IMG/VR virus record: IMGVR_UViG_3300020020_000002
Span: 1-64,000 of that record
Strand: one strand, 5' to 3'
From: a virus
DNA length: 64,000 nucleotides
This document shows, piece after piece, positions 737 through 62,284 of the stretch. A model generated the notes under the pieces. It was not told the origin of the DNA and searched no databases. It worked only from the letters and a program-made list of their open reading frames with translations. The position numbers and the translations under genes were made by a program. Within the stretch, counting starts at the first letter, position 1. The number at the start of each line of letters is the position of its first letter.

Positions 737-1012
737 TTATTCTTGAGTTGCGTTGTCGACGGCAGTCAGCACGTCGTCGAGTTCGTTGATGATGTTGTCG
801 AGGCCGTCGACTGCGGTCTGCAGCTCGCTCGCGCCTTCCTCGATCTTCTGGCCCTTCTCGCCCTGCTGGAGGCCTTCGGGAATGTTGTCGAACTTCTCCT
901 GCTCGGCCTCCTGCTCGGTTTCGATCAGGCCCTTGAGCTGGTCGAGTTCGGTCTTCACGTCGTCGAGACGCTTGTGGATCTTGGCGAGGTCTTCGCGCTG
1001 CTGTTTGTTCAT
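737..1012 (-). CDS. acidic coiled-coil protein (91 aa)
   Basis: Track ORF 737..1234 trimmed to internal ATG 1010-1012 (MNKQQREDLAKIHKRLDDVKTELDQLK...); discarded extension is R/P/H-rich; promoter-like module directly upstream. Confidence 0.65.
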   Translation of the reverse strand: MNKQQREDLAKIHKRLDDVKTELDQLKGLIETEQEAEQEKFDNIPEGLQQGEKGQKIEEGASELQTAVDGLDNIINELDDVLTAVDNATQE

Positions 1013-1060
1013 GTGTCGAGGTTGGTAGGTTTGGTGCAACGGCTTGCTGTTAGCAAGTGG
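1013..1060 (-). promoter_or_regulatory. promoter-like module P10 (looser; 15-nt leader)
   Basis: Minus strand: TTGCTA-17 nt containing GCAAGCCGTTGC-CAAACC-15 nt-ATG(1012). Confidence 0.35.
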
Positions 1061-1062
1061 TT

Positions 1063-1284
1063 TTATGCGGGGATGCTGAAAATGTCTCCGAGGAGCGTGT
1101 GCGAGTCGAAGGCCTCGCGGATCCCGTCGCGCTGCATGTCGTCGAACATCGAGGCGCTGATGACGTAGAAGTGACCGGGCCGGGTGCGGGCCACGATGAT
1201 CGGCTCGCCGTGGCGGGCCTTGGTCCACTTGCATTCGAGGCCTGCGGCGCGGAAGGTGCCGACGGTATAGGTGAGTTTTGACAT
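1063..1284 (-). CDS. hypothetical protein (73 aa)
   Basis: Track ORF 1063..1485 trimmed to ATG 1282-1284 (MSKLTYTVGTFRAAGLECKW...); upstream part is R-rich shadow sequence. Confidence 0.65.
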   Translation of the reverse strand: MSKLTYTVGTFRAAGLECKWTKARHGEPIIVARTRPGHFYVISASMFDDMQRDGIREAFDSHTLLGDIFSIPA

Positions 1285-1692: not shown

Positions 1693-2298
1693 TTAGCGCC
1701 AAGGACTGACTGCGTAGCCGTGACGCTCGGCCTGCTCTTCCATCGCATAACCGTGCAGGCGCTCTTCGAGGCTGTCGCTGTTGTCGACGTAGGGTTCCCA
1801 GTAGGCCAGATCGATCACGATGTTGTTCTTGATCTTGTCGGCGAACCGCTGGGCGATCTCGCGGGTGTTGCGGATCTTGCGAGCGTTGGCGTAAAACGCC
1901 TTGTGGATCAGCTTCGTGCCGTCGGACAACGTGGCACCCACGAGGCAGTCGAACGTGATCTGCTCCTCGCCGTTCTCGTCGATGAACGAATAGAGCTGGC
2001 CTTCGAGCGGGTAAGCGTCGACCGCTCCGCGCAGGCCTGCGTCCTTGGCTGCCTTGCTGGCCGGGGTGTGCACTGCCACCTCCCAGTTGAACTTCGCCCG
2101 GCGTGCGGCGCTCTGCAGGCCGTCGTGGTCGTTGCCCCTGAGGGGCAGTGCGCAGTAGGCGATCCATGGCCCGTAGGCGGCGAGGCCATCCGGCCCTTTG
2201 CGAAACGCTTCGACGAAGTTGGCGATCGCGTCAGGGTTGATGATGTCGGCCGTGACGACCTTGATCGCTTCGATTCCGGTGATGTTGGTGTTGCTCAT
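1693..2298 (-). CDS. hypothetical protein (201 aa), MSN-type gene behind promoter cassette
   Basis: Track ORF 1693..2346 trimmed to ATG 2296-2298 (MSNTNITGIEAIKVV...); preceded by conserved -35/17 nt/-10/6 nt/ATG cassette. Confidence 0.7.
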   Translation of the reverse strand: MSNTNITGIEAIKVVTADIINPDAIANFVEAFRKGPDGLAAYGPWIAYCALPLRGNDHDGLQSAARRAKFNWEVAVHTPASKAAKDAGLRGAVDAYPLEGQLYSFIDENGEEQITFDCLVGATLSDGTKLIHKAFYANARKIRNTREIAQRFADKIKNNIVIDLAYWEPYVDNSDSLEERLHGYAMEEQAERHGYAVSPWR

Positions 2299-2355
2299 GT
2301 TGGGAGAATGACCCAAGCCGTTGCGGTCGTCAACACCAAATCGCACTTTTTGCGA
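2299..2355 (-). promoter_or_regulatory. promoter cassette P1 (leaderless-type)
   Basis: Minus strand: TCGCAAAAAGTGCGA-7-TTGACG-17 nt (GCAACGGCTTGG)-CATTCT-6-ATGAGCAAC. Confidence 0.6.
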
Positions 2356-2361
2356 AAAGAC

Positions 2362-2762: not shown

Positions 2763-3883
2763 AGCTGATCGCAATACCAGCCGCCGCGCTGCAGGTCGCT
2801 GATCTGCGCGAAGGCCATGGTGTATTGACCCGAGAGATTCCACATCGAGAAGCGATGCGCGGCGACATTGCGGATCACGTCGCGATCCCAGTCGGGGCCT
2901 TTCGTGATAGCCTTCTCGACCGCCGTGATCCAGTCGTCCAGCGTGCGTGGCAGCCAGCCATTGAAGCCGTCCTGAATGTATTCAGGAAACGCTCCGAATG
3001 CAGACGCGATCACGGGTGTGCCGCAGAGCAGTGCCTCGACCGCTACACCACCGAACGGCTCGACGTAGCGCGTTGGACAAATCACGGCGTGCGCGTTGCC
3101 GAGATAATTCGCTCGACCCTCGCTCGGTGGACCGTGGAAGGGCGAAACCGGGTAGACGTTTTTCCTCACCCATGGCGAAGGATCGCCTTGCCCGCAGATC
3201 GTGAAATCGACATGCGGCATTCTCTTCGCGATCTCCTCGATGATCCGCAGGCCCTTGTCCTCGTTGAGTCGACCCATAAACGCGATCGTGGGTTTTTCGT
3301 TGCTGGGCATTTTGCCGATTCCGAGCGGCCAATCCTCGGGCTCGTAGTAGTTCGGGATCGTGAACCAGTAGTCGTAACCCATCACCACGCCGTTCGGAGT
3401 CTCCCGGCCGAGGTGCACGTTCATCCACGCATTGCTCTCGTAGATCCGGTGTCGGGTGAAGGCCTGCCGGTAGCCAATGCCTGTCTCGACCCAAAAGGCC
3501 ATCTTGCAGCGCGGCCCGGTGAGTGCCTCCATGTGCGCCGTGCCGAACGGCAGGCAGATGATGTCACCCGGCTCGACCCGCGCCTCCAGCTCCTGCCCGA
3601 GGTGCCCATTGAACTCTTGATAGAGCTTCGATCCGATCTGCGCGGAGTTGCCATATTGCTCATCGCCCGGCTCGCAGCCGCCGAGCTTTTTGTATTCCTC
3701 CGCGTCGAGGATCTCGACCTGCTCTTTCGCGCCACTCTCGCTGCCTGCATTGCCGTAGTGGATCACGTGGTGGCCCTCATACTGCATCATCGGCGAGAAC
3801 CGGAGCACCTTGCCGGTGAAGGCGCAGCAGGAAAACGATGGGTGGGTGTAAGTGTGCGGGATTCCGAGCAGATGTAGCTTCAT
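2759..3883 (-). CDS. glycosyltransferase, GT-B fold (GT4-like)
   Basis: Track ORF 2759..4567 trimmed to ATG 3881-3883 (MKLHLLGIPHTYTH...); C-terminal EPFGGVAVEALLCGTPVIASAFGAFPEYIQDGFNG matches the GT4 E-x7-E nucleotide-sugar region; promoter cassette upstream. Confidence 0.75.
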   Translation of the reverse strand: MKLHLLGIPHTYTHPSFSCCAFTGKVLRFSPMMQYEGHHVIHYGNAGSESGAKEQVEILDAEEYKKLGGCEPGDEQYGNSAQIGSKLYQEFNGHLGQELEARVEPGDIICLPFGTAHMEALTGPRCKMAFWVETGIGYRQAFTRHRIYESNAWMNVHLGRETPNGVVMGYDYWFTIPNYYEPEDWPLGIGKMPSNEKPTIAFMGRLNEDKGLRIIEEIAKRMPHVDFTICGQGDPSPWVRKNVYPVSPFHGPPSEGRANYLGNAHAVICPTRYVEPFGGVAVEALLCGTPVIASAFGAFPEYIQDGFNGWLPRTLDDWITAVEKAITKGPDWDRDVIRNVAAHRFSMWNLSGQYTMAFAQISDLQRGGWYCDQL

Positions 3884-3942
3884 CGCCTGTCGTCTACCGC
3901 AACGGCTTGCCAGTGTCAAACCGCGCGACCGAGCGCGGTCTG
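3884..3942 (-). promoter_or_regulatory. promoter cassette P9 (leaderless-type) overlapping the fibre gene 3' end
   Basis: Minus strand: ACCGCGC-N6-GCGCGGT inverted repeat, TTGACA (3914-3919, overlaps fibre stop)-17 nt (GCAAGCCGTTGC)-TAGACG-7-ATG(3883). Confidence 0.5.
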
Positions 3943-6798
3943 GAGGTTCTGTGTGGCTGTGTAGAACGCGGCCGCCTCGGCATCGGTCAGGCCCAGCCCG
4001 ATCGACGCCATGCCTAAATATCCGCCATAGGGATAGAGCGGCGAGCCCGCGTTGTTGCGTGCGCCGATGAAGATCGGCCCACCCAGCGGCGTGGGTGGCG
4101 AAACCGTCGTGACCTTGGTCGCCACCGCGACGCCTCGGTTGAAACCTGCGGCGCTGCTGAGCGATCGGCGCGTGACGATGTTGTGCGAGAGTGCATTGGT
4201 CCACGAGCCCGCCATGCGACCGTCGGAAATGAGGTTGCAGTCGAAAGTCACCGAGGTGGCCGTGGCGATGAAGATGCCCTCCATGCTGATGATCGACTGG
4301 TTGCCGTCGTAGAGCCCGATAATGTCGCACGCCGATCCGAAGGCGCTGCGCGCGTAGACTGAAACGTGGAAGTCGGCGAGGTTCATAAACGCCGAGGAGT
4401 TGACCACCGGGTTGCCGTAGCCAGTCGTGCCGTTGAGTAGCACGCCGTTCAAGTCGTGCGTGACGCCGCCGACCCACGTCATCGGGTAACTCGACGACTT
4501 GAGGTTTTGCGCGTGTGTTGCTCCCGTGCCGCCAACAAACGGCCAAAGTGCCTGCATCTTGGTCCACACGCCAGCCGCCTTGAGTTCCGAAATGTAGACG
4601 TTGATTGCCGCCTTCGTTGTGGGTCCAGTGATGCCAGCGCGGGTGAAGAAATCAGCCGCCTCGGCGTGCATCGGAGAGATCGGCACAATGACCTGCACGA
4701 AACCCTGCGTGCCGTTGCCGCCTGCGCCGCTCGGCGTGCCGTTCACACCGCACCCACCGCCACCGCCGCCCGCACCGTAGCCGATACCGTTCGCGCCCGC
4801 GCCGCCCGCGATGCCGCTGCCGCCGCACCTGCCGCCACCGCCGCCAAGGCCGAAGCAATAAACCAAGTCGTTAGAGTTGGCCTGCCCTCCCGGCGTGCCT
4901 TGCGTGGTCAAGCCGCCGATGCCTCCCGGTAAAAGGGTCGAATTGCCGCTGCCCAAGGTGCCCGCGTTGCCGCCGTCGCCGCCGACATTTCCCGTGGTGA
5001 GCCCGCTGCCGCCACCGCCGCCCGTGGTTGCCATAAAAATCGGGATGTCGGCACCCCAACCCGGGGAACCTTGCCCGCCCGCGCCGCCGCCGGACGTGGA
5101 AAGTGCCGCGCCGTAGATGACGATGCCGCTCGTGAGACTCGCGCCGCCTGCCGGGTTGCCACCGCTGCCGCCGCCAGTGCCGAACCCGCCACCCTTGGCT
5201 TGCATGGTCGCGAAAACGCTCGTGCCACCCGCGACGCCGTTGATTCCGTCCGTGCCGGATGCCGCCTGCGCTGCGCCGCCCGCGCCTGCTGGACCGACGG
5301 TAACCGTCACCGTGGATGGCAAAAGCGAAACTTTCATGCGGGTTATCACGACGCCTGCGCCCGCGCCACCTGCGCCGCCTGTTCGCGCCGTGCCCGATCC
5401 ACCCACGCGCCCGCTGCCGCCGCCACCACCGCCGCCGACGAGCGTGACGTCAGCGTATGCGCTAGGGTTAGCGTTCGCCGGTTTCACCCACGTTCCACTT
5501 GTCGTGAAAGTCTGAATGTTCAGGCCCTCGACCGTGTCGACCGATGCACTGCTACCGCTTGGTCCTGTCGCGCCCGTTGGGCCGGTTGCACCCACGCCGC
5601 CTGCCGCGCCGCTTGGTCCCGTTGGGCCGGTCAATCCGGTTGGACCGACGACGCCTTGGATGCCCTGTGGTCCCGTCGCACCCGTCGTGCCCTTGATCCC
5701 GGTGGGTCCGGTCGCGCCACTGGGACCGCTCACGCCTTGTATTCCTTGCGGGCCTTGCAGACCTGTCGGGCCGGTCGGTCCTACCGCGCCCGCTGTTCCT
5801 GTCACGCCCGTTGGCCCGGTTGGACCGGCGACGCCTTGAGGGCCTTGGATGCCGGTCGGTCCCGTTGGTCCTGCCGGGCCTGCGCCACCCGGTGCGCCTG
5901 CCGTGCCGCTCGGGCCAGCCGGGCCGGTTGCGCCAGATGGTCCGATCGCACCTTGAGGGCCTTGAATTCCTGTCGGACCAGTGGGTCCGGCGACCCCTTG
6001 GGGCCCGGTTGGACCCACTGCGCCCGCTGTGCCAGTTACGCCGGTTGGACCCGTCGGACCCGCCGCTCCAGCGGGCCCTTGGGGCCCTGTGGGCCCTACT
6101 GCACCGGCAGGGCCGGTTGCGCCTGTGGGACCGGGCACAGTCGAGTTTGCTCCGGTTGGTCCCTGCGGGCCGGTTGCACCGCTCGGGCCGATCGCACCTT
6201 GGATGCCCTGCGGGCCGGTTGGTCCAGTCGCGCCGGTCAAGCCGATCGGACCAGTCGGACCTACTGGGCCGGTGGCTCCGATCGGACCCGTCACGCCGGT
6301 CGGTCCCATCGGGCCTTGGATGTTGCCCGCGTCGATCCATGTCGCGGTATCGGCATCCCAAATCCAAAGGTGGTCGTTGTCCTCGGACACGTAGGCGTCG
6401 CCATCCTCCATTCCGGCCGTCGGCAGGTCGCCCGCCGTCGGCACGGTGCCTTTGACGTTGATCCCGGTGCCTGCCGCGCCGGTTGCGCCGGTTGGGCCTT
6501 GCGCTCCGCTGGGGCCTTGTGGGCCGGTTGGCCCCTCGGGACCAGTCGCGCCCGTCAACCCGGTTGCCCCGGCTGGCCCGGTTTCACCGATCGGACCAGT
6601 CGCACCTGCCGGGCCGGTTGGTCCAGTCGGTCCTGCGCCGCCTGCGCCACCGCCGCCGAACGGCTCGATGTTGCCCAGCCAGTCGATCGTGTAGAACTCG
6701 TAGTCGGCCTTGCTGAGAAAGACGCGCTTGCGGCCGGTGGCGGGCAGGCTGGGGGGCTTGTTGACCGATTCCCACGTGATTGAGGTTTGTGGATCCAT
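3916..6798 (-). CDS. tail fibre: collagen-like G-X-Y repeats + glycine-rich domain + C-terminal lectin/LamG-like domain
   Basis: Track ORF; two long Gly-X-Y blocks separated by [26 protein letters not shown] (motif common in collagen-like phage fibres), a poly-Gly-rich block, then a ~270-aa globular C-terminus; ATG 6796-6798 shares one nt with the stop of the giant ORF (TGATG); GTG 6799-6801 is an alternative start. Confidence 0.8.
5556..6318 (-). repeat. collagen-like Gly-X-Y triplet repeat block 2 (coding)
   Basis: Continuous GPTG/GATG/GPQG triplets in the fibre translation; 9-nt periodic GGN-CCN-NNN DNA; boundaries approximate. Confidence 0.8.
6463..6657 (-). repeat. collagen-like Gly-X-Y triplet repeat block 1 (coding)
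   Basis: [52 protein letters not shown] in the fibre N-terminal region; boundaries approximate. Confidence 0.8.
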
Positions 6799-27837: not shown

Positions 27838-27897
27838 GGGAGCTGTTGTTTAGAGCAACAGCTTGCCGTGAAATGTAGATGATAGGCAAGGGCGCAG

Positions 27898-36876: not shown

Positions 36877-37148
36877 TCGTTCTCTCTCCCGATGAAGGGT
36901 GAGTTTTCGGTGATGGTCGTGGCTCCGCTGGCGAGCTGGATGACTGCCTCGATCATGTGCTCCGCGCCGCGCACCTCGCTGCCGGACATGGCTCGTGCTT
37001 CGAGCGTCTCGGTGGTGGTGAAGCGCGGCCGTCGGGCGCGCATCGCGGGCAGGAACTTCGGGCTTTTGTCGAGATACGCGCGGAGAGCTTGCGCGTCGTT
37101 CTCCGTCCACACGATGTGAACGGGTTCGGGTCGAGTTTGTTCAGGCAT
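36873..37148 (-). CDS. hypothetical protein (91 aa)
   Basis: Track ORF MPEQTRPEPVHIVWTENDAQALRAYLDK...; preceded by palindrome copy 4 and a looser promoter cassette. Confidence 0.6.
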   Translation of the reverse strand: MPEQTRPEPVHIVWTENDAQALRAYLDKSPKFLPAMRARRPRFTTTETLEARAMSGSEVRGAEHMIEAVIQLASGATTITENSPFIGRENE

Positions 37149-37191
37149 ATCGAGGACCGACTATGTAAGGCAAGCCGTTGCTAGCTGGCAA
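37149..37191 (-). promoter_or_regulatory. promoter-like module P2 (short leader)
   Basis: Minus strand: TTGCCA-17 nt (GCAACGGCTTGC)-TTACAT-14 nt-ATG(37148). Confidence 0.4.
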
Positions 37192-37204
37192 GCCTAACGA
37201 ATTC

Positions 37205-37229
37205 TCAACTGCGTTTTAAACGCAGTTGA
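37205..37229 (+). promoter_or_regulatory. 25-nt perfect palindrome, copy 4
   Basis: Read directly; starts 6 nt after the portal stop codon (37235-37237), followed by a promoter-like module. Confidence 0.9.
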
Positions 37230-44874: not shown

Positions 44875-44899
44875 TCAACTGCGTTTAAAACGCAGTTGA
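44875..44899 (+). promoter_or_regulatory. 25-nt perfect palindrome, copy 5
   Basis: Read directly; 17 nt upstream of ATG 44857. Confidence 0.9.
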
Positions 44900-45321: not shown

Positions 45322-45410
45322 TTCATGTCTCGGTTGATGGCGTAGCCGAAGGTGGCGAGGATCAGCATCAGGATCCACAGCACCAGTTCGCAGTCGCATT
45401 GGGCGATCAT
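45318..45410 (-). CDS. small membrane peptide (30 aa)
   Basis: Hand translation MIAQCDCELVLWILMLILATFGYAINRDMK; ATGA overlaps at both ends link the XRE gene to paralog B. Confidence 0.4.
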   Translation of the reverse strand: MIAQCDCELVLWILMLILATFGYAINRDMK

Positions 45411-45679
45411 TTGTTGGAGGTGTGGCCTGCGGCAGCGTGGCGGCGCACCATGGCGTCGCTACGGGCCTCGCTACGGCGCTTGCGCAGCCGGTCCATGGCC
45501 GTCTCGCTCTTGGTCGATTCGAGCAGCGGGATGATCCCATACTGCTCAATGCGGCTCGGTGGTTTCCCGTTCTCCCACGCCCACAGTTTGCGGGGTGAGA
45601 TGTCGAGGATCTTGGCGCACTCGGCTTGTGAGAGGCCGAGCTTCTCGCGCAGGGTTTTGATTTCTTTGGCGATGTTCAT
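45407..45679 (-). CDS. XRE-family HTH transcriptional regulator (90 aa)
   Basis: Trimmed to ATG 45677-45679; MNIAKEIKTLREKLGLSQAECAKILDISPRKLWAWENGK is a classic Cro/CI-type HTH. Confidence 0.8.
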   Translation of the reverse strand: MNIAKEIKTLREKLGLSQAECAKILDISPRKLWAWENGKPPSRIEQYGIIPLLESTKSETAMDRLRKRRSEARSDAMVRRHAAAGHTSNK

Positions 45680-46459: not shown

Positions 46460-46771
46460 TTACTTGGCGACGCTGGCGGTGGGCCTGTCGACGAGGATAA
46501 CCCGGCCGTGAAAGTCGCGAGCCATCGAGGCGATGTAGCAGGTGTTGCCCGCGGCGACGTCTTTGAGCCAGATCGCCTTGGAGAGCGCGTAGACCGTGCC
46601 GTTCGGCTGGCGCTGGAGGGCTCCGTTCCAGATCCGGCCGAACTTATCGCTGAACGTGTAGTCGACGTTGTTGCGGGATTTGAAGCTGACGCGCAGCACG
46701 GTGTGCCCGGCGTCGGCGAGGGCCTTGGCGATCAGTGCTTTTGTTTCGGCGATGTTGGCGGTGTTGCTCAT
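46460..46771 (-). CDS. hypothetical protein (103 aa), MSN-type gene behind promoter cassette
   Basis: Trimmed to ATG 46769-46771 (MSNTANIAETKALIAKALADAGH...). Confidence 0.7.
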   Translation of the reverse strand: MSNTANIAETKALIAKALADAGHTVLRVSFKSRNNVDYTFSDKFGRIWNGALQRQPNGTVYALSKAIWLKDVAAGNTCYIASMARDFHGRVILVDRPTASVAK

Positions 46772-46830
46772 GTCGGTGAATGTGGTGCAAGCGGTTGCGG
46801 TATGCAAGATCTATTTCGCAAAAGTTGCGA
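46772..46830 (-). promoter_or_regulatory. promoter cassette P3 (leaderless-type)
   Basis: Minus strand: TCGCAACTTTTGCGA-8-TTGCAT-17 nt (GCAACCGCTTGC)-CACATT-7-ATGAGCAAC. Confidence 0.6.
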
Positions 46831-47046
46831 TTACTTGGTGTCAGATTCGTCGGCTGCTTTCTGCGCTCTCACGACGCGGAGATTCGCCCTCGTGGCAGCT
46901 TCGAGGATAGGGCCGTGCTTGGCGCACCACGAAAAACCGTGGCGCTTCTCGGCGCGGCGTGCGCATTGCTTGCCGGTGGTGAACATCGCGCAGCAGCGCC
47001 GGACGCCCTGTGCTTCGAGTTCCTTCCACGTGAGTGGGGTGCTCAT
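46831..47046 (-). CDS. Cys-rich protein (71 aa)
   Basis: Trimmed to ATG 47044-47046 (MSTPLTWKELEAQGVRRCCAMFTTGKQCARRAEKRHGFSWCAKHG...); ATGA overlap. Confidence 0.6.
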   Translation of the reverse strand: MSTPLTWKELEAQGVRRCCAMFTTGKQCARRAEKRHGFSWCAKHGPILEAATRANLRVVRAQKAADESDTK

Positions 47047-47378
47047 TGCGCGACCTCCCGCAGGATGGGGTGGAACCCTTTGGAGGTGACGGTGGTCACC
47101 TCGCCGAACTTGAGCGGGCTGCTGATCTCCCAGCGTTCCCACACGCACTCGCCCTTCTCGTTCTCGTCGACGCCGACGTAGAGGCGGCTCTTGAGCAGCC
47201 GGGCGGGGCGGGTGCCGCGGCCGGGGCCTTCGCCGAGCCACAGGGTGTGGGTCGCGCCGCGCTCGGCCGACCACGCGCAGGGTGCGCCTTCGCGGACCTC
47301 GTGGCGCTTGCCCCACGAGTTTTCGCGGACGATCGTGACGTTGTGCTTATCCATGGCGGTGGTGATGCGGTTGCTCAT
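47043..47378 (-). CDS. hypothetical protein (111 aa), MSN-type gene behind promoter cassette
   Basis: Trimmed to ATG 47376-47378 (MSNRITTAMDKHNVTIVRENSWGK...). Confidence 0.7.
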   Translation of the reverse strand: MSNRITTAMDKHNVTIVRENSWGKRHEVREGAPCAWSAERGATHTLWLGEGPGRGTRPARLLKSRLYVGVDENEKGECVWERWEISSPLKFGEVTTVTSKGFHPILREVAQ

Positions 47379-47436
47379 GTCGGGAAGGTGGCGCAAGCGG
47401 TTGCAGTGGTCAAACACTATTTCGCACTATTTGCGA
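47379..47436 (-). promoter_or_regulatory. promoter cassette P4 (leaderless-type)
   Basis: Minus strand: TCGCAAATAGTGCGA-8-TTGACC-17 nt (GCAACCGCTTGC)-CACCTT-6-ATGAGCAAC. Confidence 0.6.
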
Positions 47437-47695
47437 TCTGCCGGGCGTTTGCCCAGTTGATGTAGATGATGCTCGCGGCCTCGTCGCGGGTCTTGCCCAG
47501 CTTGCGCTGAGTCTTGGCGTCCTGCCAGCCGCCGTATGGCGAGCGGCTCACATAGCCGATCGTAAACTCGCTGATGTTGGTGATGTCGCGGTGCCTCCCG
47601 GGGATAATTTCGACGCTGTAGACCCCCTCGACGCCGCTCGGGCCGAAGCCGAAGCCGTAGATCTCTGCGTAGGTTTTGATGTTGATGCGTTTCAT
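47417..47695 (-). CDS. hypothetical protein (92 aa)
   Basis: Track ORF MKRINIKTYAEIYGFGFGPSGVEG...; its last codons contain the upstream inverted repeat of the next cassette. Confidence 0.65.
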   Translation of the reverse strand: MKRINIKTYAEIYGFGFGPSGVEGVYSVEIIPGRHRDITNISEFTIGYVSRSPYGGWQDAKTQRKLGKTRDEAASIIYINWANARQIANSAK

Positions 47696-47707
47696 GGTCG
47701 TGGTCGG

Positions 47708-47920
47708 TTAGGCAGTCATCGCGAACTTGCGGATCGCTTCGGTCTGCAGGCCGCTTTTGCGGCGGATCCGGCGGTAAATCTCGGAGTCGCGTTTGGTGGC
47801 GAAGAGCTGGCGCTCGCCCGCAGGTCCGACGACCTCCCAGCGCAGTGGCTTGTCGTGCCAGTCGCCCGAGAGGATGCCGTTGGGCAGTTTATTGATGATG
47901 ACGGTCGGTGTGTTGCTCAT
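47708..47920 (-). CDS. hypothetical protein (70 aa), MSN-type; paralog of 44648..44857
   Basis: Trimmed to ATG 47918-47920 (MSNTPTVIINKLPNGILSGDWHDKPLRWEVVGPAGERQLFATKRD...). Confidence 0.7.
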   Translation of the reverse strand: MSNTPTVIINKLPNGILSGDWHDKPLRWEVVGPAGERQLFATKRDSEIYRRIRRKSGLQTEAIRKFAMTA

Positions 47921-47979
47921 ACGGTGAAGGTGGCGCAAGCGGTTGCAGTGGTCAAATACTTTCTCGCATTATTTGCGAG
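47921..47979 (-). promoter_or_regulatory. promoter cassette P5 (leaderless-type)
   Basis: Minus strand: CTCGCAAATAATGCGAG-7-TTGACC-17 nt (GCAACCGCTTGC)-CACCTT-6-ATGAGCAAC; the stop codon of the upstream gene lies in the loop of the inverted repeat. Confidence 0.6.
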
Positions 47980-48241
47980 GCATCTTTGAGTGCCGCCAGC
48001 CCATCCACGCGTGACGCTTCTTGGCCTGCTTGGCGATCGCGGGCGCGCAGTCCTTGCAGTCGCAGCGCATGACCTGCTCGCGGTAGGCCTGCGCCCGGGT
48101 GGGCTCGTGGATCGCGTGCACCGGGCCGTCAGGATCGCTGGCGCACTTGTAGCCGGGCTTGAGCAGGATCCAGTAGCCGTCGTCGCCTTCGGTCCACTGC
48201 TCCTTGATGTGCCGGGCGTGGAGTTTGATCGGGTTACTCAT
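47969..48241 (-). CDS. Cys-rich protein (90 aa)
   Basis: ATG 48239-48241 (MSNPIKLHARHIKEQWTEGDDGYW...CDCKDC) in ATGA overlap with upstream stop; ATG at 48256 is an alternative start. Confidence 0.6.
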   Translation of the reverse strand: MSNPIKLHARHIKEQWTEGDDGYWILLKPGYKCASDPDGPVHAIHEPTRAQAYREQVMRCDCKDCAPAIAKQAKKRHAWMGWRHSKMPRK

Positions 48242-49417: not shown

Positions 49418-50041
49418 TTAGATTTTCCCGGCGATCGCCTTGATGGCGTCCTTGAATCCGCCTTCGCCCTTCAGCTCGGCGGTCACCTTGCGGCTCGCCT
49501 CGTCCCAGCGGATCGCGCGCCATTCGGTGATGATGCGGGCCTTCTTGAAGCGGTCGGTAGGCTTGTGGCGGAAGGTGGACACGTAGAGGTGTAGGTTCCC
49601 GCTTTGGTAGTGGCGCTCGGTGCCGCTCTTGCGGCCCGTGCGGCTGTCACTGACCTTGGTGAACTTCTCGACCGGAGCGGCCGCGCCGCCGTTGTTGCAG
49701 ATCAGGCGAACGGTGGTCGTCGTGACGACTTCGTTCGGGGCCGGGACCACCGCCAGCTTGCCCGTGCCGTGGCAGCGGGAGCAGCAGTGTGAGTCGGGAT
49801 CGGAGCGGCGAACCGAGCGGGAGAAGTCGCGGCTGAATGCGCCCAGTCCGTCGCAGTCTTCGCATTCGGTCACTGGCGCGTCCACCACTTCGATCTCGAC
49901 CTCACAGGACCACGAGTGGCGGAAGTCTTCGGCTTTGGTGCCGGGGCGAAGGGCGAGGGCCTCGGCGGCTGTCTTGGCCTCGAAGGCCCGGCCGTTGAAG
50001 TAGAGGCCGGTGCTGGTCGCTTTTGCGTAGGTGTTGCTCAT
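49418..50041 (-). CDS. protein with DnaJ-type CxxCxGxG zinc-finger pair (207 aa), MSN-type
   Basis: Trimmed to ATG 50039-50041 (MSNTYAKATSTGLYFNG...); CEDCDGLG ... CSRCHGTG; promoter cassette upstream. Confidence 0.65.
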   Translation of the reverse strand: MSNTYAKATSTGLYFNGRAFEAKTAAEALALRPGTKAEDFRHSWSCEVEIEVVDAPVTECEDCDGLGAFSRDFSRSVRRSDPDSHCCSRCHGTGKLAVVPAPNEVVTTTTVRLICNNGGAAAPVEKFTKVSDSRTGRKSGTERHYQSGNLHLYVSTFRHKPTDRFKKARIITEWRAIRWDEASRKVTAELKGEGGFKDAIKAIAGKI

Positions 50042-50099
50042 GGGGTGACCTTGGCGCAACCGCTTGCCCCTGTCAACACCCATGTCGCATTTTCTGCGA
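50042..50099 (-). promoter_or_regulatory. promoter cassette P6 (leaderless-type)
   Basis: Minus strand: TCGCAGAAAATGCGA-8-TTGACA-17 nt (GCAAGCGGTTGC)-CAAGGT-6-ATGAGCAAC. Confidence 0.6.
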
Positions 50100-50100
50100 A

Positions 50101-50337
50101 TTATTTTCGGGTGACCTCGATCACCACGTGCGGCTCGTAGTAGCTGGGCGGGTTCGGCACGAAGAGCACGCGCAGGCGCTTATCACCCTTGTAGGCCTTG
50201 CGTGCCACGGCCACGAGTGCGGCCTCGGCCGTCGGGTAGCGGCGCGTGATCGTCTGCCAGTGGTGCCGATACGCCTGCCTGCGCTGGCCGATGTAGCGGC
50301 CGGGCGTCCGTAGGATGTGGATCGTCGGCTCGATCAT
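50101..50337 (-). CDS. hypothetical protein (78 aa)
   Basis: Trimmed to ATG 50335-50337 (MIEPTIHILRTPGRYIGQRRQAYRHHW...); ATGA overlap. Confidence 0.6.
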   Translation of the reverse strand: MIEPTIHILRTPGRYIGQRRQAYRHHWQTITRRYPTAEAALVAVARKAYKGDKRLRVLFVPNPPSYYEPHVVIEVTRK

Positions 50338-52251: not shown

Positions 52252-53629
52252 CAGGTGGCGCGGTTGCGTCGAGTGGTTTGTCTGGCACCTCGGCGATCGG
52301 CTCACCGCCGGGTTGATAGTCTTCAATGCATAGGTGGCCCAGCCATCGAGCAGTGTAGTCGACGATCGAGTTGGCGACCCTGATGTCGGGGTTGGTGGTG
52401 ATCCCGCGGGGCTCGAACTTATGCCACGCGAACATGCGCGCGATCTCCCTGACCGGCACGCCGTATTGCAGGAGCATGCTTAGGCTGCGCGCCCACGCGT
52501 CGGCGAAACCCTGCAGGGTTGAGCCCTGCTTCTGGATCACGATGAAGACCTCGCCCGGGCGGCTTGGATCCACGTCGTCGCCCTCGCCGTAAAAGCCCAC
52601 GGTGATGTAGCCCTTCTGCCCGGCGATATCGAACTTGTGGGTGACCGCGTTGCGTGTGTCGGGCAGGCGGTGCCGTTGCTCGATCGGCGCAGGCCCGTCC
52701 GCTTGCACGGGCATCGTCTCGGTGAGTTGCTGGGCGAGGCCCTTGGTGAAGACCTGCCCACAGTTGTGGCATTGCACGACCCTGTTGAACTCGTTCCAAA
52801 AGATCGGGCCGACCTCGATGTCGTGGATCGGGTAGCCACAGCACGGCGTTACCCCGGTGCGCTTGATTGCGTTCGGGTTGGCGGCTTCGGCGGCGGTGCG
52901 GGCGGGGCGCTGTTGGCGCAGGTCGGCTTCAACGTAGTTTTTAATCGCGCTATCGAGCCCGTCATCGTCGCGCACCATGTTGGTCAGGTTTTTGATCGTG
53001 CACGCGTTGATGCGATGATCGAAGTCGCGGCGCGTGCATGGATCGCCCAAGTAGCGCCCGCCGATCTCGCCCTGCGGGCCTACCGGGCCTCGGGCGTCGT
53101 TCCAGCCGTCCCAGTCCATCACCTCGAAGCCGAGCAGCGTGGCCCACACCTCGGGCAGCAGGAGCACGTCCGGCGTGAGCTTGTCGACGTTGATCCGCGA
53201 GCCACGGCGCAGCTTTAACTTTTTGACCTCTTCGCGCATTTCACCGAATGCGTCGCAGATGTCCTCGACGCACTCGGCCAGCGGGATCGAATTCCCACCG
53301 CGCTCTTTCTCCCACCCGACCCGGTCGAGCGCCGCGCCGATGCGCTTGGCGATGTGACCCAGCACGATCGCTGCGCCGTGGTCGTCGAACTGCAGCTCGC
53401 CTAGGTCGAAGGCATGCGTGACGTCGATCTGCTTGTTCATCGCGCTGGTGGGCGTGCGGCGGTTGATGACCGGCACGATCGCGGTGTAGCCGGTGACGCG
53501 GACGCGGGTGCCGGGCGAGATCTCAGGATCTCTCGCGGTCAGCACGGTGGCGATCGGATCTTGAAAGCGTGGCGGTCCTACTTCGAGGTTGAGTGGGTCG
53601 GGTGGTGTTTGCATCGGTTGAGTGTTCAT
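52241..53629 (-). CDS. protein with stand-alone NrdJ C-terminal (TSCPD-like) domain, Zn-ribbon and novel N-terminal region (462 aa)
   Basis: C-terminal THKFDIAGQKGYITVGFYGEGDD...PGEVFIVIQKQGSTLQGFADAWARSLSMLLQYGVPVREIARMFAWHKFEPRGITTNPDIRVANSIVDYTARWLG parallels the C-terminal segment of long class II (B12) ribonucleotide reductases; no catalytic barrel upstream. Confidence 0.6.
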   Translation of the reverse strand: MNTQPMQTPPDPLNLEVGPPRFQDPIATVLTARDPEISPGTRVRVTGYTAIVPVINRRTPTSAMNKQIDVTHAFDLGELQFDDHGAAIVLGHIAKRIGAALDRVGWEKERGGNSIPLAECVEDICDAFGEMREEVKKLKLRRGSRINVDKLTPDVLLLPEVWATLLGFEVMDWDGWNDARGPVGPQGEIGGRYLGDPCTRRDFDHRINACTIKNLTNMVRDDDGLDSAIKNYVEADLRQQRPARTAAEAANPNAIKRTGVTPCCGYPIHDIEVGPIFWNEFNRVVQCHNCGQVFTKGLAQQLTETMPVQADGPAPIEQRHRLPDTRNAVTHKFDIAGQKGYITVGFYGEGDDVDPSRPGEVFIVIQKQGSTLQGFADAWARSLSMLLQYGVPVREIARMFAWHKFEPRGITTNPDIRVANSIVDYTARWLGHLCIEDYQPGGEPIAEVPDKPLDATAPPDAR

Positions 53630-54336
53630 AAGCTTCCTGCCTCCATTTCATCGATCGATTTGTCGCCGCTAGTGAGCGGCAGCGGGCCGACGGTCTTGAC
53701 GTGGCCGTTGCTGCCGGTGGAGATGTTGTTGGTGATGGCCTGAAAGATCAGTGTCTGCATCCGGTTCTCAGTGAGCTTGGCCTCGTCCTCCCCCTTCTCG
53801 TTGATCCCGATGCCTAGTAGCTTGCGGGCCTGCTCGGTGACTTTCACGATCGTCTCGGCCGCCTTGGCCTGCTCGGCGAATGCGTTCTCATCGAGCACCT
53901 CGACCTCCATCCCGAATTGCTTCACCACCCGCTTGACGTAGAGCGGTCCCTGCGCGCCCTCAACCGTGTTGGTGGCGATCGGCAGGAACTCGCGGATGAT
54001 GCTTTCGAGCCTAGGCAGCGCGATGGCGAGATAGGCATCGCGCTGATCCGCGATCGACTCCTTGCGATAGGTGACGGCCCCGCGGATGAACCCGGCGATC
54101 GTTGTGTGCGAGGGCACGATCTGGAGGTTGAATTTCTTGGCCAGCGCCTGCGCGATATCGCGCTGGTGCCAGCCCTTGGTGACTAGGTCAAAGCAGAACT
54201 CTTGAAACTCGACGCGGCGCTCGTCCTCGCCAGTGCCGTTCGGTGCGCCGGGCAGGTGCTCCTTTTTTTGCACGACTGCCTTGCCTTGGTTGTTACCTTT
54301 ATTCGGCGGCTTTTTGCTGTCCTTCTTTTTGGCCAT
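53626..54336 (-). CDS. HTH DNA-binding protein, possible small terminase subunit (236 aa)
   Basis: Track ORF; Lys-rich N-terminus, HTH-like GWHQRDIAQALAKKFNLQIVPSHTTIAGFI, helical centre, acidic C-terminus; about 4.4 kb from terL, so the assignment is weak. Confidence 0.3.
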   Translation of the reverse strand: MAKKKDSKKPPNKGNNQGKAVVQKKEHLPGAPNGTGEDERRVEFQEFCFDLVTKGWHQRDIAQALAKKFNLQIVPSHTTIAGFIRGAVTYRKESIADQRDAYLAIALPRLESIIREFLPIATNTVEGAQGPLYVKRVVKQFGMEVEVLDENAFAEQAKAAETIVKVTEQARKLLGIGINEKGEDEAKLTENRMQTLIFQAITNNISTGSNGHVKTVGPLPLTSGDKSIDEMEAGSL

Positions 54337-55965: not shown

Positions 55966-56269
55966 TGGTTGTGACTGGTTGCTTTGGGCACTTGGCAAAT
56001 CCGCTGACGTGCACCCATGCGTTCTCTTCGTAAGTTTGGACGCCGCCGCACTTGGGGCAGACGCGTTTTTCGGGCTCGTGTTTGACCCACGGGCGCTTGG
56101 GCCGCGTGGATTTGGTTTTGCTGTGCCGGGCCTTCGCACCTAGCTTGCCGATCTTCTTGTAGAAGCTGGCAGGCCGACGCTTGGCCTTGCCGGTGCCTGC
56201 TTTGCCGCCCATGCGGCCAAACGCAGACGCCGCGGCGCTGATATCGGGGTTGATCTCGGGCTCATTCAT
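55940..56269 (-). CDS. basic Zn-ribbon protein (109 aa)
   Basis: Trimmed to ATG 56267-56269 (MNEPEINPDISAAASAFGRMGGKAG...CPKCGG); promoter cassette upstream. Confidence 0.6.
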   Translation of the reverse strand: MNEPEINPDISAAASAFGRMGGKAGTGKAKRRPASFYKKIGKLGAKARHSKTKSTRPKRPWVKHEPEKRVCPKCGGVQTYEENAWVHVSGFAKCPKQPVTTNGTHTRSK

Positions 56270-56305
56270 AGATGGATAGCTAGTGCAAGCGGTTGCTTGT
56301 GTCAA
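56270..56305 (-). promoter_or_regulatory. promoter cassette P7 (leaderless-type)
   Basis: Minus strand: TTGACA-17 nt (GCAACCGCTTGC)-TAGCTA-7-ATG(56269). Confidence 0.55.
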
Positions 56306-56676
56306 TGCGCCGCCTGACGTCGTGACTTGCGTGGTGGTGTCACTTGGGGTGGCGGTGATTGGCGTGGTTTGTCGCGGTGAATGCGTCGCTTTACAGGTCG
56401 GCGCAGGTAGGCCTCCAGCTCGGGCGTGAACTTGATGCGCAGGATCCGGCCGGTCGAGCCATACTCGGCGTAGAATGCCGGGCAAGACGCCGAGTAGATG
56501 CGGCGGTGGAGCGTGTTGGCCCGCAGATCGCATCGCTTGGCGACGTCCTGCGGCGTGAGCATGTGGCCCGGCGCGTCCTTGGGCGGCAGGCATACCCAGC
56601 CGTGGGTTTGCAGGATGTGGATGGCGAGGCGGATTACTTCGCCCTCGTCGGTGTGGACCGGCGGCTTGGTGCTCAT
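56302..56676 (-). CDS. HTH (excisionase/MerR-like) DNA-binding protein (124 aa)
   Basis: Trimmed to ATG 56674-56676; MLTPQDVAKRCDLRANTLHRRIY resembles an HTH_17-type motif; ATGA overlap. Confidence 0.45.
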   Translation of the reverse strand: MSTKPPVHTDEGEVIRLAIHILQTHGWVCLPPKDAPGHMLTPQDVAKRCDLRANTLHRRIYSASCPAFYAEYGSTGRILRIKFTPELEAYLRRPVKRRIHRDKPRQSPPPQVTPPRKSRRQAAH

Positions 56677-56906: not shown

Positions 56907-57106
56907 CGGTAGAGTTTCCGGTAGTAGCGGATGTCGAGGTTGCGCCCGGCCTTGTTGGCCGATTGCTGCGACTCGCCGAGTTGGTTGCCGTCGATGTCGA
57001 CGACCCGGGTGAACCACACGCGGCAGTGACGGTCATACCACCACTCGATGGTGACGCCGCTTTTGCCTGCGGGCTTGCGGTAGATCTTCCACGGTGCGGT
57101 GCTCAT
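56903..57106 (-). CDS. hypothetical protein (67 aa)
   Basis: Trimmed to ATG 57104-57106 (MSTAPWKIYRKPAGKSGVTIEWWYDRHCRVWF...); ATGA overlap. Confidence 0.6.
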   Translation of the reverse strand: MSTAPWKIYRKPAGKSGVTIEWWYDRHCRVWFTRVVDIDGNQLGESQQSANKAGRNLDIRYYRKLYR

Positions 57107-57426
57107 GTCAGGAGAGGTTGCTTGAGACGCTTCTCGGCCCGGTCGAGAGCCCGGCGCTCCCGGGCGGCGGCTTTGCGCTCCTTGGTGGCCCGTGCGCGCT
57201 CCAGAAGGGCCCGGTTGGCCTGCGCCCGCAGTGCGGAGCGGTAAACGTCGCACAGGGCGATCTGGACGCCTCTACGGGTGCCCTCAGGTCGGAGTTCGAT
57301 CAGGTCAGGCACGTCGTCGGTGCCGGGGATCAGGGTGGCGACCAGCCTGCGACGCTTGTCGAGGCCGAAGGAGCCATCGAGGGCGTTATTCGACCGGCGG
57401 CTGATTTTGCTTTTGAGCGGTGTCAT
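57103..57426 (-). CDS. hypothetical basic protein (107 aa)
   Basis: Track ORF MTPLKSKISRRSNNALDGSFGLDKRRRLVATLIPG... Confidence 0.55.
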   Translation of the reverse strand: MTPLKSKISRRSNNALDGSFGLDKRRRLVATLIPGTDDVPDLIELRPEGTRRGVQIALCDVYRSALRAQANRALLERARATKERKAAARERRALDRAEKRLKQPLLT

Positions 57427-58329: not shown

Positions 58330-58719
58330 TTAGCCGACGATCATCAGCGACTGGGCGATCAGCTTGCGCATCGCTGGGGTCTTGGGGAGGATGCGCTTCG
58401 AGAAGCGGATCTCGGTGTCGGTGATCGTCACCTCGGCGAAGTTGGAGTTGTCGAGGCAGGCGCTGAAGGGCTCGAACTTGTTCAGGAGGCGAATGTCGGC
58501 GCGGTAGAGGAAGTAGACGCCGTCGCTGGTGACGAACGCTTCGCCGCTCTTGCAGTCTGTGCCGAACATGCGGTGGCCGCGCTCGGTGTTGGCGATCGTG
58601 CGCTTGGCCTCGGCCTCGTTGTAGGAGAGGTCCATGCCGCTCGCGGCGACTGCCTCGCCGAGGCTGGCGTGGCGGCTGATGATTTGGATCGCGGTGTTGG
58701 TCTTGGTCGTGTTGCTCAT
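58330..58719 (-). CDS. hypothetical protein (129 aa), MSN-type gene behind promoter cassette
   Basis: Last 129 codons of track ORF 58330..60009 from ATG 58717-58719 (MSNTTKTNTAIQIISRHASLGEAVAASG...); the rest of that ORF is an R-rich shadow of terL. Confidence 0.7.
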   Translation of the reverse strand: MSNTTKTNTAIQIISRHASLGEAVAASGMDLSYNEAEAKRTIANTERGHRMFGTDCKSGEAFVTSDGVYFLYRADIRLLNKFEPFSACLDNSNFAEVTITDTEIRFSKRILPKTPAMRKLIAQSLMIVG

Positions 58720-58778
58720 GGGGTGACTATGGGGGCAAGCCGTTGTGCTTGCAAGCCCTTTTTCGCTTTTTTTGCGAA
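58720..58778 (-). promoter_or_regulatory. promoter cassette P8 (leaderless-type)
   Basis: Minus strand: TTCGCAAAAAAAGCGAA-7-TTGCAA-17 nt (ACAACGGCTTGC)-CATAGT-6-ATGAGCAAC; begins 7 nt after the terL stop. Confidence 0.6.
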
Positions 58779-58784
58779 TTCTTT

Positions 58785-60641: not shown

Positions 60642-61111
60642 TAAGTATCCCAATGGGCGTGCGCCCAATCGCCCAAGCGTTCATCCATTTCGTCGTTGCT
60701 TTCAGGTGTTAGGTGCATGTCGTCGCACGCCATGTAGTAGAACTGCCGCCAGCGTTCGGCAAAGCGATTGTCGGGGTGTTTGTAGCCGAGGATTTGCGCG
60801 CCGTGCATTAGGTGCATCACGAAGTGGTGCGGCAAGCTGTCGACGGTGTGGAAAAACGCCTTCACCGCCGCGATCCAACCGTCGGTGTCGGCAAAGACGT
60901 TGAGGCCCATGAAACTGTCGGCTTTCTCGCCAAACTTGAGCAGCCGACCATATTTGGCCGCGAGGAAAACCGTGCCGCGGTAGGCACGCTGGATCTCTTT
61001 GCAAGGATGGTCCTTCGCAATTCCATCGGGGCCGCGGGCGGCGAGCAAGAGGACGCTTTGCTGTTGCAACGGCAAGGCCGTGCACCAATCGGGCTGGACT
61101 GATTTGTGCAT
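60641..61111 (-). CDS. hypothetical protein upstream of terL (156 aa)
   Basis: Trimmed to ATG 61109-61111 (MHKSVQPDWCTALPLQQQSVLLLAARGPDG...); the position could fit a small terminase but no motif supports it. Confidence 0.55.
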   Translation of the reverse strand: MHKSVQPDWCTALPLQQQSVLLLAARGPDGIAKDHPCKEIQRAYRGTVFLAAKYGRLLKFGEKADSFMGLNVFADTDGWIAAVKAFFHTVDSLPHHFVMHLMHGAQILGYKHPDNRFAERWRQFYYMACDDMHLTPESNDEMDERLGDWAHAHWDT

Positions 61112-62259: not shown

Positions 62260-62284
62260 TCAACTGCGTTTAAAACGCAGTTGA
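62260..62284 (+). promoter_or_regulatory. 25-nt perfect palindrome, copy 6
   Basis: Read directly; 18 nt upstream of the sliding-clamp ATG (62241). Confidence 0.9.

Follow-up and report, generated by a model that had tools for sequence, protein, structure and literature searches.

What is the function of a sequence of about 60 nt that fills the gap between two genes, recurs at several places in one viral genome and carries the start codon of the second gene? This question is raised by a stretch of phage DNA of 64,000 nt (positions 1 to 64,000 of the IMG/VR record IMGVR_UViG_3300020020_000002), hereafter called the window, in which a preliminary description made from the letters alone had pointed out a family of such elements, here called cassettes. 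The genome, identified by exact protein look-ups, is a circularly assembled contig of 74,319 bp (ERZ27268065 k141_1410868), and the window covers 64 kb of it. Considering the anatomy of the cassettes, their enrichment, their conservation, their fixed geometry and their variable cargo, we think it rather probable that each of them is a promoter for the primary (sigma-70-type) RNA polymerase of the host, with an embedded operator and with the start codon at or next to position +1, and that it constitutes a portable head for accessory genes.

On the minus strand, a cassette consists of a TTGACA-like -35 hexamer, a spacer of 17-18 nt that contains GCAA(C/G)NN(C/G)TTGC, a weak -10 hexamer (CAnnnT), 6-7 nt and the ATG. 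All ten sites listed in the preliminary description are found on this strand of the window (Table 1). Two additional cassettes are located in the 10,178 bp beyond it. Both are complete and start with ATGAGCAAC, so that eight cassettes open in this way genome-wide, including the six in the window for which a common Met-Ser-Asn (MSN) start had been noted. The eight strict copies follow the order first proposed, i.e. -35, 3-4 nt, the 12-nt dyad, 2 nt, the hexamer, 6-7 nt and ATG, but the spacer resulting from these distances is of 17 or 18 nt and not always of exactly 17. This is within the 17 +/- 1 nt that separates the hexamers of sigma-70 promoters, and the -35 is sigma-70-like in all window copies, being of the TTGACA, TTGACC, TTGACG or TTGCAT type. 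As for the upstream inverted repeat that was also part of the proposed layout, the TCGCA type is present in six window copies, with a start invariably located 57-59 nt ahead of the ATG. The cassette at 56270 lacks it, and a different repeat is found at 3884.

The elements of the cassette are 20- to 25-fold more frequent than in dinucleotide-preserving shuffles. There are 10 matches to GCAASNNSTTGC versus 0.39 expected, 5 to TCGCA-N5-TGCGA versus 0.20, and 8 to ATGAGCAAC versus 0.41. Seven of the latter eight are on the minus strand, and six of these seven are cassette starts. A position weight matrix, the approach suggested in the preliminary description, was built solely from 25 cassettes of related phages and recovers nine of the ten window sites with scores of 16.6-24.9 bits; the best score obtained in 30 Markov simulations had a mean of 10.4 and a maximum of 16.2. 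The cassette is a real, strongly non-random and evolutionarily conserved feature. It is also the only repeated promoter motif recognisable in the genome, as generic promoter and terminator scans revealed no excess of canonical sigma-70 promoters anywhere and no second promoter population.

The 622-aa terminase-like protein has 62 homologues on contigs of up to ~76 kb and 257 more distant relatives in IMG/VR, and the phage evidently belongs to a large family of uncultured phages. From 12 related phages, with terminase-like proteins that are 36-81% identical, 44 cassettes were collected. Nearly all of the nine closer relatives whose neighbourhoods were compared (L011-L014, L095-L098 and L101) possess the cassette, and at the orthologous position just after the terminase-like gene it is found in eight of nine phages (this phage and seven of eight close relatives). 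Recognisable variants are present in L016 and L026, in which the terminase-like protein is ~36-37% identical. In about 33 of the 44 cassettes an ATG that opens an open reading frame (ORF) is located 14-18 nt past the dyad, and the pipeline gene calls on the relatives' contigs mostly open at this ATG. An alignment of 36 sites from seven phages shows that in 32 of them the second base of the hexamer at +3 to +8 past the dyad is A. For the -35, the two T residues are each found in ~27-31 sites and the G in 23, with the TTG 7-9 nt before the dyad. The -10 of the relatives is of the TAAAAN type and better than that of the present phage, and the initial suggestion that a weak -10 might mean dependence on a phage factor is weakened accordingly.

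Two relatives indicate which part of the cassette is invariant. At three sites of L097, the dyad is 4 bp nearer to the -35 and overlaps it, with an unchanged layout of -35, 17 nt, -10, 8-9 nt and ATG. L014 has lost the dyad, yet TTGACG-17-CATAAC-7-ATG and TTGCCG-17-TAGCGT-7-ATG are present. The invariant element would thus be a sigma-70-type promoter abutting the start codon, with the dyad as an added element of the spacer. The ATGAGCA starts are kept alongside the cassettes in distant relatives, which argues for selection, related to initial transcription and/or leaderless translation, as well as for copying. A scan of the IMG/VR viral-contig DNA with the pattern TTGAC-N4-GCAACCGCTTGC gave nine single matches, of which about four resemble true dyad-bearing promoters. 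The matching contigs L006 and L009 have genes in common with the phage family, and the site in L008 is identical to that in L009.

We propose that the host sigma-70-type polymerase transcribes from the cassette, in a phage for which neither a polymerase nor a sigma factor of its own could be detected. The unit would open with a short hairpin, located where the upstream gene ends, that insulates it or terminates upstream transcription. An A/T-rich stretch at the position of an UP element would be followed by the TTGACA-like -35, and within the 17-18 nt spacer a dimeric regulator would bind a pseudo-palindromic operator of 12 bp, which has the core GCAAGC/GCTTGC and reaches 18 bp in some relatives. 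Because every phage promoter carries the dyad, one regulator could control all of them together. The weak -10 would retain the key A at position 2. Transcription would start at the A of the ATG in this phage and 1-3 nt earlier in the relatives, and the first gene would be translated from a leaderless or near-leaderless mRNA, the leaderless form opening with 5'-AUGAGCAAC. By analogy with the promoter-early stem-loop (PeSL) cassettes of T4-like phages, the cassette, ATGAGCA(A/C) included, would probably also supply homology for the shuffling of ORFans.

Several observations do not fit easily with this proposal. The -10 hexamers of the window match TATAAT at just 2-3 of six positions, and the cassettes escape a generic sigma-70 scan. 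The TAAAAN hexamer of the relatives is without the usually conserved final T and is 8-10 nt away from the ATG. This distance predicts a leader of 1-4 nt, meaning that strict leaderlessness is not conserved, and in about a quarter of the cassettes the ATG is even 21-29 nt past the dyad. Moreover, translation in this phage needs no 5'-terminal AUG, since nearly all of its genes are without a Shine-Dalgarno sequence. Finally, no dyad-binding regulator was identified.

The question of leaderless mRNAs deserves closer consideration. The preliminary description had predicted them and had contrasted the cassettes with the gene at 30626, which is preceded by a Shine-Dalgarno sequence (GAGGAGGTG). That gene is an exception, as a convincing Shine-Dalgarno (anti-Shine-Dalgarno duplex of -7 kcal/mol or stronger) precedes only ~7 of 101 genes. 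The other ~93% are without it, whether a cassette is present or not, and the contrast is therefore uninformative. Most starts are preceded by A/C-rich, G-poor sequence, e.g. AACCAACATACCAAC-ATG. The cassette genes all begin with ATG and have anti-Shine-Dalgarno duplexes of +1.4 to -3.8 kcal/mol, as expected for leaderless genes, yet this does not discriminate them from the others. With 6-7 nt between the -10 and the ATG in the window, the canonical +1 falls on the A of the start codon, and a -10 located 6-8 nt before the start is the signature spacing of bacterial leaderless genes according to GeneMarkS-2 (PMC6028130; see also PMC12340547). Because a -10 abutting the ATG is conserved in the relatives, we infer, as the most economical reading, that the cassette transcripts are leaderless or near-leaderless. 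To this extent the initial prediction is supported. The looser cassette at 1010..1081 predicts a short leader. For the structural-operon promoter, the orthologue in L101 has a TATATG -10 and just 7 nt to the ATG.

The host itself appears to be poor in, or independent of, Shine-Dalgarno sequences. Genomes in which these are scarce are typical of Bacteroidota and some Verrucomicrobia (PMC10783764). A genome-contig scan for the host identified one 3.3-kb contig of a relative that is binned into a Verrucomicrobiota genome, which is a weak hint that the host belongs to this phylum.

The dyad has a 12-bp core, GCAA(C/G)NN(C/G)TTGC, that occurs in both orientations within one genome. It is a perfect palindrome, GCAAGCGCTTGC, in L013 and L097, and is extended to 18 bp in some copies. 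As an RNA hairpin it would have 4-5 pairs at most and fold weakly. Given this short stem, and as the presence of both orientations argues for recognition of double-stranded DNA, the best reading is that the dyad is recognised in this form by a dimeric protein. Its sequence is conserved among phages whose neighbouring hairpin differs. The initial proposal of an operator is supported by this conservation, by the two orientations and by the shifts of the dyad within the spacer, and the dyad behaves like an operator to which a regulator may bind. It is present at every recognisable promoter of the phage, including that of the structural operon at 37191, and consequently does not define an early class. 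The early or host-takeover class suspected in the preliminary description is thus not borne out, the cassettes being the sole repeated promoter motif and also heading the structural operon and a glycosyltransferase gene.

Which protein could bind the dyad? The XRE protein (45407-45679) that was first put forward is a poor candidate. It has two homologues only, among 5.8 billion proteins, versus a dyad found family-wide, and is not a conserved protein of the relatives in which the dyad persists. The more likely binder is a host factor, or else a phage protein that is conserved but unrecognised. Among the phage proteins, candidates are a conserved HTH-like protein of 236 aa (53626-54336) and the HTH_36 protein (63126-63881). 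The conservation of the dyad is, as far as these alignments tell, unlike that of fast-evolving immunity operators. An immunity-type repressor system would be in line with the palindromic site; neither the 74-kb genome nor the relatives' flanks yielded an integrase, and the sole XRE-type protein is not conserved. Two further readings were rejected and a third is improbable: a sigma-54 reading of TGCAAC-N3-TTGC, judged by eye, has the wrong spacing and is at odds with a dyad in both orientations; MerR-type activation does not agree with a spacer of 17-18 nt instead of 19-20; and a PeSL-like terminator hairpin is unlikely with a stem of 4-5 bp. The dyad may also resemble a LacI/PurR-type operator (ACGCAAGCGCTTGCGT in L097 compared to the PurR box). 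No LacI-family gene was found in the phage.

The genes behind the cassettes encode proteins that have nothing in common beyond MSN(T). They are not paralogous, are not conserved in the relatives and, apart from the glycosyltransferase, have no family assignment. Six of the window cassettes are located between the terminase-like gene and the portal gene, an interval of 1.4 kb in L014 (without cassette), ~5.5 kb in L012 and L013, 9.6 kb in L011 and 19 kb here, where it is occupied by small ORFans. This interval is a hyperplastic region. After the post-terminase cassette, the window has three ORFans before a gene for a 107-aa protein (57103-57426), L095 has one unrelated gene (230 aa), and no gene intervenes in L096. 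There the cassette, as MSNQ-LELRPEG, is joined to a truncated gene that encodes residues 39-104 of the homologue of the 107-aa protein. The non-shared cargo, this fusion and the variable post-terminase genes indicate that the cassette, including ATGAGCAAC, behaves like a portable 5' module placed in front of unrelated ORFans.

The same observations could mean that the cassettes are chiefly mobile recombination modules of the PeSL type, in which ATGAGCAAC is conserved by copying and exchange and the promoter role is secondary or variable. The cassettes flank non-conserved ORFans in hypervariable regions, the copies at 47379 and 47921 are 82% identical across 72 nt, the junction of the L096 fusion is directly past ATGAGCAAC, the window, L095 and L096 differ in the genes that follow a conserved cassette, and PeSLs have a similar make-up with a stem-loop often between -35 and -10. 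We nevertheless find this explanation unlikely. The conservation is not uniform but specific for certain positions (-35, dyad, A of the -10, distance to the ATG), and it holds at 36-50% identity of the terminase-like protein, which points to selection on function instead of recent copying. No indel with cassettes at both ends was found, and the right-hand junctions that were examined are without a cassette. In addition, a recombination role is compatible with the proposed promoter and does not exclude it. In its broadest form, which we advance only tentatively, the promoter explanation would describe a family-wide plug-and-play module (hairpin, UP-like stretch, -35, operator, -10, ATGAGCA), possibly in Shine-Dalgarno-poor Verrucomicrobiota, by which captured ORFans are expressed at once as leaderless mRNAs under a common regulator while the cassettes double as recombination sites. 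If this is true, the operator would be read by a host factor or by a conserved, unrecognised phage DNA-binding protein, because it is conserved across very divergent phages.

Another explanation places the function in the RNA: the segment that extends from the dyad to ATGAGCA would be a Shine-Dalgarno-independent translation-initiation or processing signal in polycistronic transcripts, and the hexamers would be incidental. An almost Shine-Dalgarno-free phage does need some other initiation signal, conservation crosses the ATG into codons 2 and 3, the -10 is weak, and start-associated sequences (SAS), for which a function is not established, are located beside start codons in Cluster K mycobacteriophages (PMC3203893). 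However, ~90 other genes of the phage are evidently translated without the element, and a TTGACA at 17 nt, an A/T-rich upstream stretch and a conserved A in the -10 would not be expected from an RNA signal. The dyad, moreover, occurs in both orientations and would form an RNA stem of only 4 bp, and no match to Rfam was obtained. We therefore consider an RNA signal quite improbable. Very improbable indeed is the idea that the cassettes or hairpins are promoters for a phage sigma factor or a phage-encoded polymerase, such as an N4-like virion RNA polymerase reading DNA hairpins: the 2768-aa virion-type protein has a weak match to a PHROG profile of 3513 positions, the -10 is weak and upstream hairpins with stems of 5-9 bp and loops of 3-5 nt recur, but the PHROG match coincides with a PBECR5 nuclease domain, the other large protein is a portal, no polymerase or sigma domain was detected in the 74-kb genome or in the relatives' flanks (Pfam scan of the early region, precomputed Pfam marks for the remainder), the hairpin is ~51 nt from the ATG and occurs also without a cassette, and the hexamers suit the sigma-70 geometry.

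The role of the hairpins in the proposed promoter unit can be approached by comparing phages. The small inverted repeat upstream of the cassettes has a folding energy of -5 to -6 kcal/mol in most copies and -9.5 in one. The window also contains six copies of a strong 25-nt perfect palindrome, TCAACTGCGTTT(T/A)AAACGCAGTTGA (-15 kcal/mol), all just past stop codons and two of them directly upstream of cassettes. On the coding strand these copies are preceded by an A-run, i.e. followed by a T-run on the plus strand, and a T7 run on the coding strand is found only at 30223-30247. Each relative abounds in an intergenic hairpin of its own: ACTTCGCAC.GTGCGAAGT, CATCTTCGTTT.AAACGAAGATG, CTCCGCGC.GCGCGGAG, CCACTTCGATT.AATCGAAGTGG and CTTCGTCA.TGACGAAG. 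In the close relatives these are located beside promoters and also alone, directly after stop codons, and those of L014 occur only alone. Between phages, 7 of 10 stem pairs have changed on both sides with pairing kept, a count made on sequences selected for pairing and a pattern that a palindromic protein site would give just as well as an RNA hairpin. The strong palindrome appears to be the clearest counterpart of this family-wide hairpin in the window. The upstream repeat had originally been taken for an operator or activator site. It is, however, a member of a family of covarying hairpins, some of which stand without any promoter, and we therefore regard the intergenic hairpins as probable boundary elements of transcription units (terminator, insulator or processing site), although they are mostly without a downstream U-run on the coding strand. 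In L016 (IMGVR_UViG_3300025918_000016), a distant member of the family, a different near-palindrome, ATAATT(A)GCAAATTTGTCAATTAT, recurs between genes in both orientations (e.g. at 9613, 11808, 13876 and 16521). ATGAGCA starts directly follow some of its copies.

Among described systems, the PeSL cassettes of T4-like phages are the nearest (Arbiol et al. 2010, PMC2839356; Comeau et al. 2014, PMC4122927). These repeated cassettes are composite: a strong promoter of the sigma-70-like type is preceded by A/T-rich sequence and accompanied by a stem-loop, which is often located between -35 and -10. They flank ORFans in hyperplastic regions, where they mediate modular shuffling (PMC2839356, PMC4122927). 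In both systems a sigma-70-like promoter recurs between genes, has A/T-rich sequence before its -35 and is combined with a dyad or stem-loop, both are found beside ORFans in hyperplastic regions, both end at the start codon of the downstream gene, and modular shuffling is proposed for both. They differ in that PeSLs have a Shine-Dalgarno between the -10 and the ATG, whereas here there is none and the ATG follows the -10 after 6-10 nt. The spacer dyad is short, sequence-conserved and weakly folding here, in contrast to the G/C-rich terminator stem of PeSLs, the hairpin is separate and upstream, and the first three codons (ATGAGCAAC) belong to the unit. The residence also differs: instead of a T4-like myovirus, we have a phage whose portal resembles those of the podoviruses T7, Pan3 and SU10 and which encodes a T7 gp14-like protein. 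As for recombination, left junctions are located at the cassette (the L096 fusion and the variable post-terminase genes), and no indel is bounded by cassettes at both ends.

Bacterial leaderless genes, known from Actinobacteria and Deinococcus-Thermus (PMC6028130, PMC12340547, PMC4633059), share with the cassette genes a -10 located 6-8 nt before the ATG, the lack of a Shine-Dalgarno and the predicted coincidence of the two starts. The cassettes add a strong -35 and an embedded operator, and are repeated within one phage. Internal genes of those bacteria are thought to use ribosome-binding sites (PMC6028130), whereas the internal genes of this phage have no Shine-Dalgarno. The SAS of Cluster K mycobacteriophages (Pope et al. 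2011, PMC3203893) is a 13-bp motif at translation initiation sites, and its extended form, ESAS, has 17-bp repeats with variable spacers. The SAS is similar to the cassette in being repeated immediately before many starts, with an inverted repeat just upstream of about half of the copies, and in its cluster-wide conservation. In contrast to the cassette, it has no -35/-10 geometry, and its hosts are Actinobacteria.

In phages with repressor-controlled promoters, a palindrome between or over the -35 and -10 of several promoters lets one regulator control them jointly. A palindromic site between the -35 and -10 of several promoters is also what we find here. In the present case, though, neither a cognate repressor gene nor an integrase was found in the phage, and the operator is conserved across terminase-like proteins of 36-80% identity, which is unusual for operators of the immunity type and suggests that the factor involved is either one of the host or a conserved one of the phage. 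A comparison can also be made with morons, which are independent transcription units located between conserved phage genes and usually equipped with idiosyncratic promoters and terminators acquired with the gene. The accessory genes between the terminase-like and portal genes likewise have their own promoter and an adjacent hairpin. Unlike morons, they are headed by one standard, phage-family-specific cassette common to many cargos.

If the transcription starts map to the ATG, each genome would provide about a dozen near-identical leaderless promoters, with natural variation across the relatives, and this set could serve studies of leaderless and Shine-Dalgarno-independent initiation in groups other than Actinobacteria and Deinococcus-Thermus. 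The family-wide operator would mark a regulator that could switch the entire transcription programme of the phage. A cassette that bears the start codon and accepts interchangeable ORFans would carry the idea of PeSL shuffling beyond T4-like myoviruses, into a lineage unrelated to them. The cassette matrix may be of practical help in calling gene starts and transcription units in these metagenomic phages. The interest of the cassettes would be chiefly that of a clean natural system in which leaderless expression and cassette-mediated gene capture come together, in an unexplored group of phages and hosts.

Table 1. Cassettes, palindromes and neighbouring genes of the window, with the score of each site in the matrix built from related phages
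Feature	Position	Strand	Elements	Start, gene behind or content	Score (bits)
Looser cassette	1010..1081	-	-35 TTGCTA 1051-1056; dyad GCAAGCCGTTGC 1036-1047; 23 nt to start	ATGAACAAA	18.7
Full cassette	2296..2358	-	strong palindrome 2362-2386 upstream; inverted repeat 2341-2355; -35 TTGACG 2328-2333; dyad GCAACGGCTTGG 2313-2324; -10 CATTCT; 6 nt	ATGAGCAAC	21.8
Cassette with other GC-rich repeat	3881..3944	-	ACCGCGC-N6-GCGCGGT; -35 TTGACA 3914-3919; dyad GCAAGCCGTTGC 3899-3910; -10 TAGACG; 7 nt	ATG of glycosyltransferase gene 2759-3883	18.9
Structural-operon promoter, just after portal gene	37146..37229	-	strong palindrome 37205-37229; -35 TTGCCA 37186-37191; dyad 37170-37181; -10 TACATA; 13 nt	ATGCCTGAA	16.6
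Full cassette	46769..46832	-	inverted repeat TCGCAACTTTTGCGA 46816-46830; -35 TTGCAT 46802-46807; dyad 46787-46798; -10 CACATT; 7 nt	ATGAGCAAC, ATG 46769-46771; 103-aa ORFan	24.9
Full cassette	47376..47438	-	inverted repeat TCGCAAATAGTGCGA 47422-47436; -35 TTGACC 47408-47413; dyad 47393-47404; -10 CACCTT; 6 nt; contains stop codon of upstream gene	ATGAGCAAC, ATG 47376-47378; 111-aa ORFan	23.6
Full cassette	47918..47980	-	inverted repeat TCGCAAATAATGCGA 47964-47978; A/T-rich linker; -35 TTGACC 47950-47955; dyad GCAACCGCTTGC 47935-47946; -10 CACCTT; 6 nt	ATGAGCAAC, ATG 47918-47920; 70-aa ORFan	23.6
Full cassette, dyad reversed	50039..50101	-	inverted repeat 50085-50099; -35 TTGACA 50071-50076; dyad GCAAGCGGTTGC 50056-50067; -10 CAAGGT; 6 nt	ATGAGCAAC; 207-aa protein	21.5
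Cassette without TCGCA inverted repeat	56267..56330	-	-35 TTGACA 56300-56305; dyad 56285-56296; -10 TAGCTA; 7 nt	ATGAATGAG; 109-aa protein	22.4
Full cassette directly after terminase-like gene	58717..58779	-	inverted repeat TTCGCAAAAAAAGCGAA, degenerate TCGC/GCGA stem 58763-58777; -35 TTGCAA 58749-58754; dyad ACAACGGCTTGC 58735-58746; -10 CATAGT; 6 nt	ATGAGCAAC	
Eleventh dyad	27838..27897	.	dyad GCAAGCTGTTGC 27855-27866	gap before lipoprotein-like gene 27607-27837	
Strong 25-nt palindrome, six copies	62260-62284, 44875-44899, 37205-37229, 30223-30247, 18645-18669, 2362-2386				
Terminase-like gene	58785-60653	-		adjoins replication genes (clamp, loader)	
Portal gene	37235-39709	-			
Gene of 2768-aa protein	6798-15104	-		GNAT acetyltransferase residues 1377-1449; PBECR5 nuclease residues 1555-1746; DUF7178 residues 2325-2403	
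Gene of 961-aa protein	3916-6801	-		long collagen-like Gly-X-Y repeats; Gly-rich C-terminal part	

The eleventh dyad is followed on the minus strand by 2 nt, TAAACA, 9 nt and an ATG, and its -35 is poor. The matrix score of this site is better on the plus strand, where an ORF of 50 aa (27879-28031) begins, and the site could be an antisense or bidirectional promoter. The product of the gene at 27607-27837 starts with MNYTRSTIITIAIALLTGCAG, a lipoprotein-type signal, and is possibly a spanin.

The window has a G+C content of 62% and ~100 genes arranged nearly back to back, all on the minus strand. No tRNA gene and no Rfam family were found in it, and a search of 50,697 phage records gave no match to an 8-kb stretch of the early region (megablast) or to the 622-aa protein (tblastn). 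The latter is an ATPase-nuclease whose matches to large-terminase profiles are weak but coherent. Replication-type genes of the window encode a DnaC-like loader, a sliding-clamp homologue and an HTH_36 protein, and the DNA beyond the window encodes an ERF recombinase, an SNF2 helicase, a DUF932 protein and small ORFs. An AlphaFold2 model of the 824-aa protein (mean pLDDT 80) matches the portals of Pan3, SU10 and T7 in Foldseek (E ~1e-10). Judged by this model the protein is a podovirus-type portal, and its candidacy as a polymerase was rejected. A weak T7 gp14-like protein is followed by proteins of 694 and 2768 aa. The latter has no match to any solved structure, N4 polymerase included. With its GNAT, PBECR5 and DUF7178 domains it was rejected as an N4-like virion polymerase, and looks like a polyvalent, ejected internal virion protein. 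From this gene content, the phage appears as a podovirus-like tailed phage of an uncultured lineage unrelated to T4-like myoviruses. The 961-aa collagen-repeat protein is probably a fibre, and its gene is directly upstream of the cassette-driven glycosyltransferase gene. The sole ORF of the genome on the opposite strand (L099 9665-9826) is located just beyond the window, upstream of window position 63881. It encodes a hydrophobic peptide of 53 aa and is situated in a 330-bp gap before the HTH_36 gene, which may be a regulatory or origin region.

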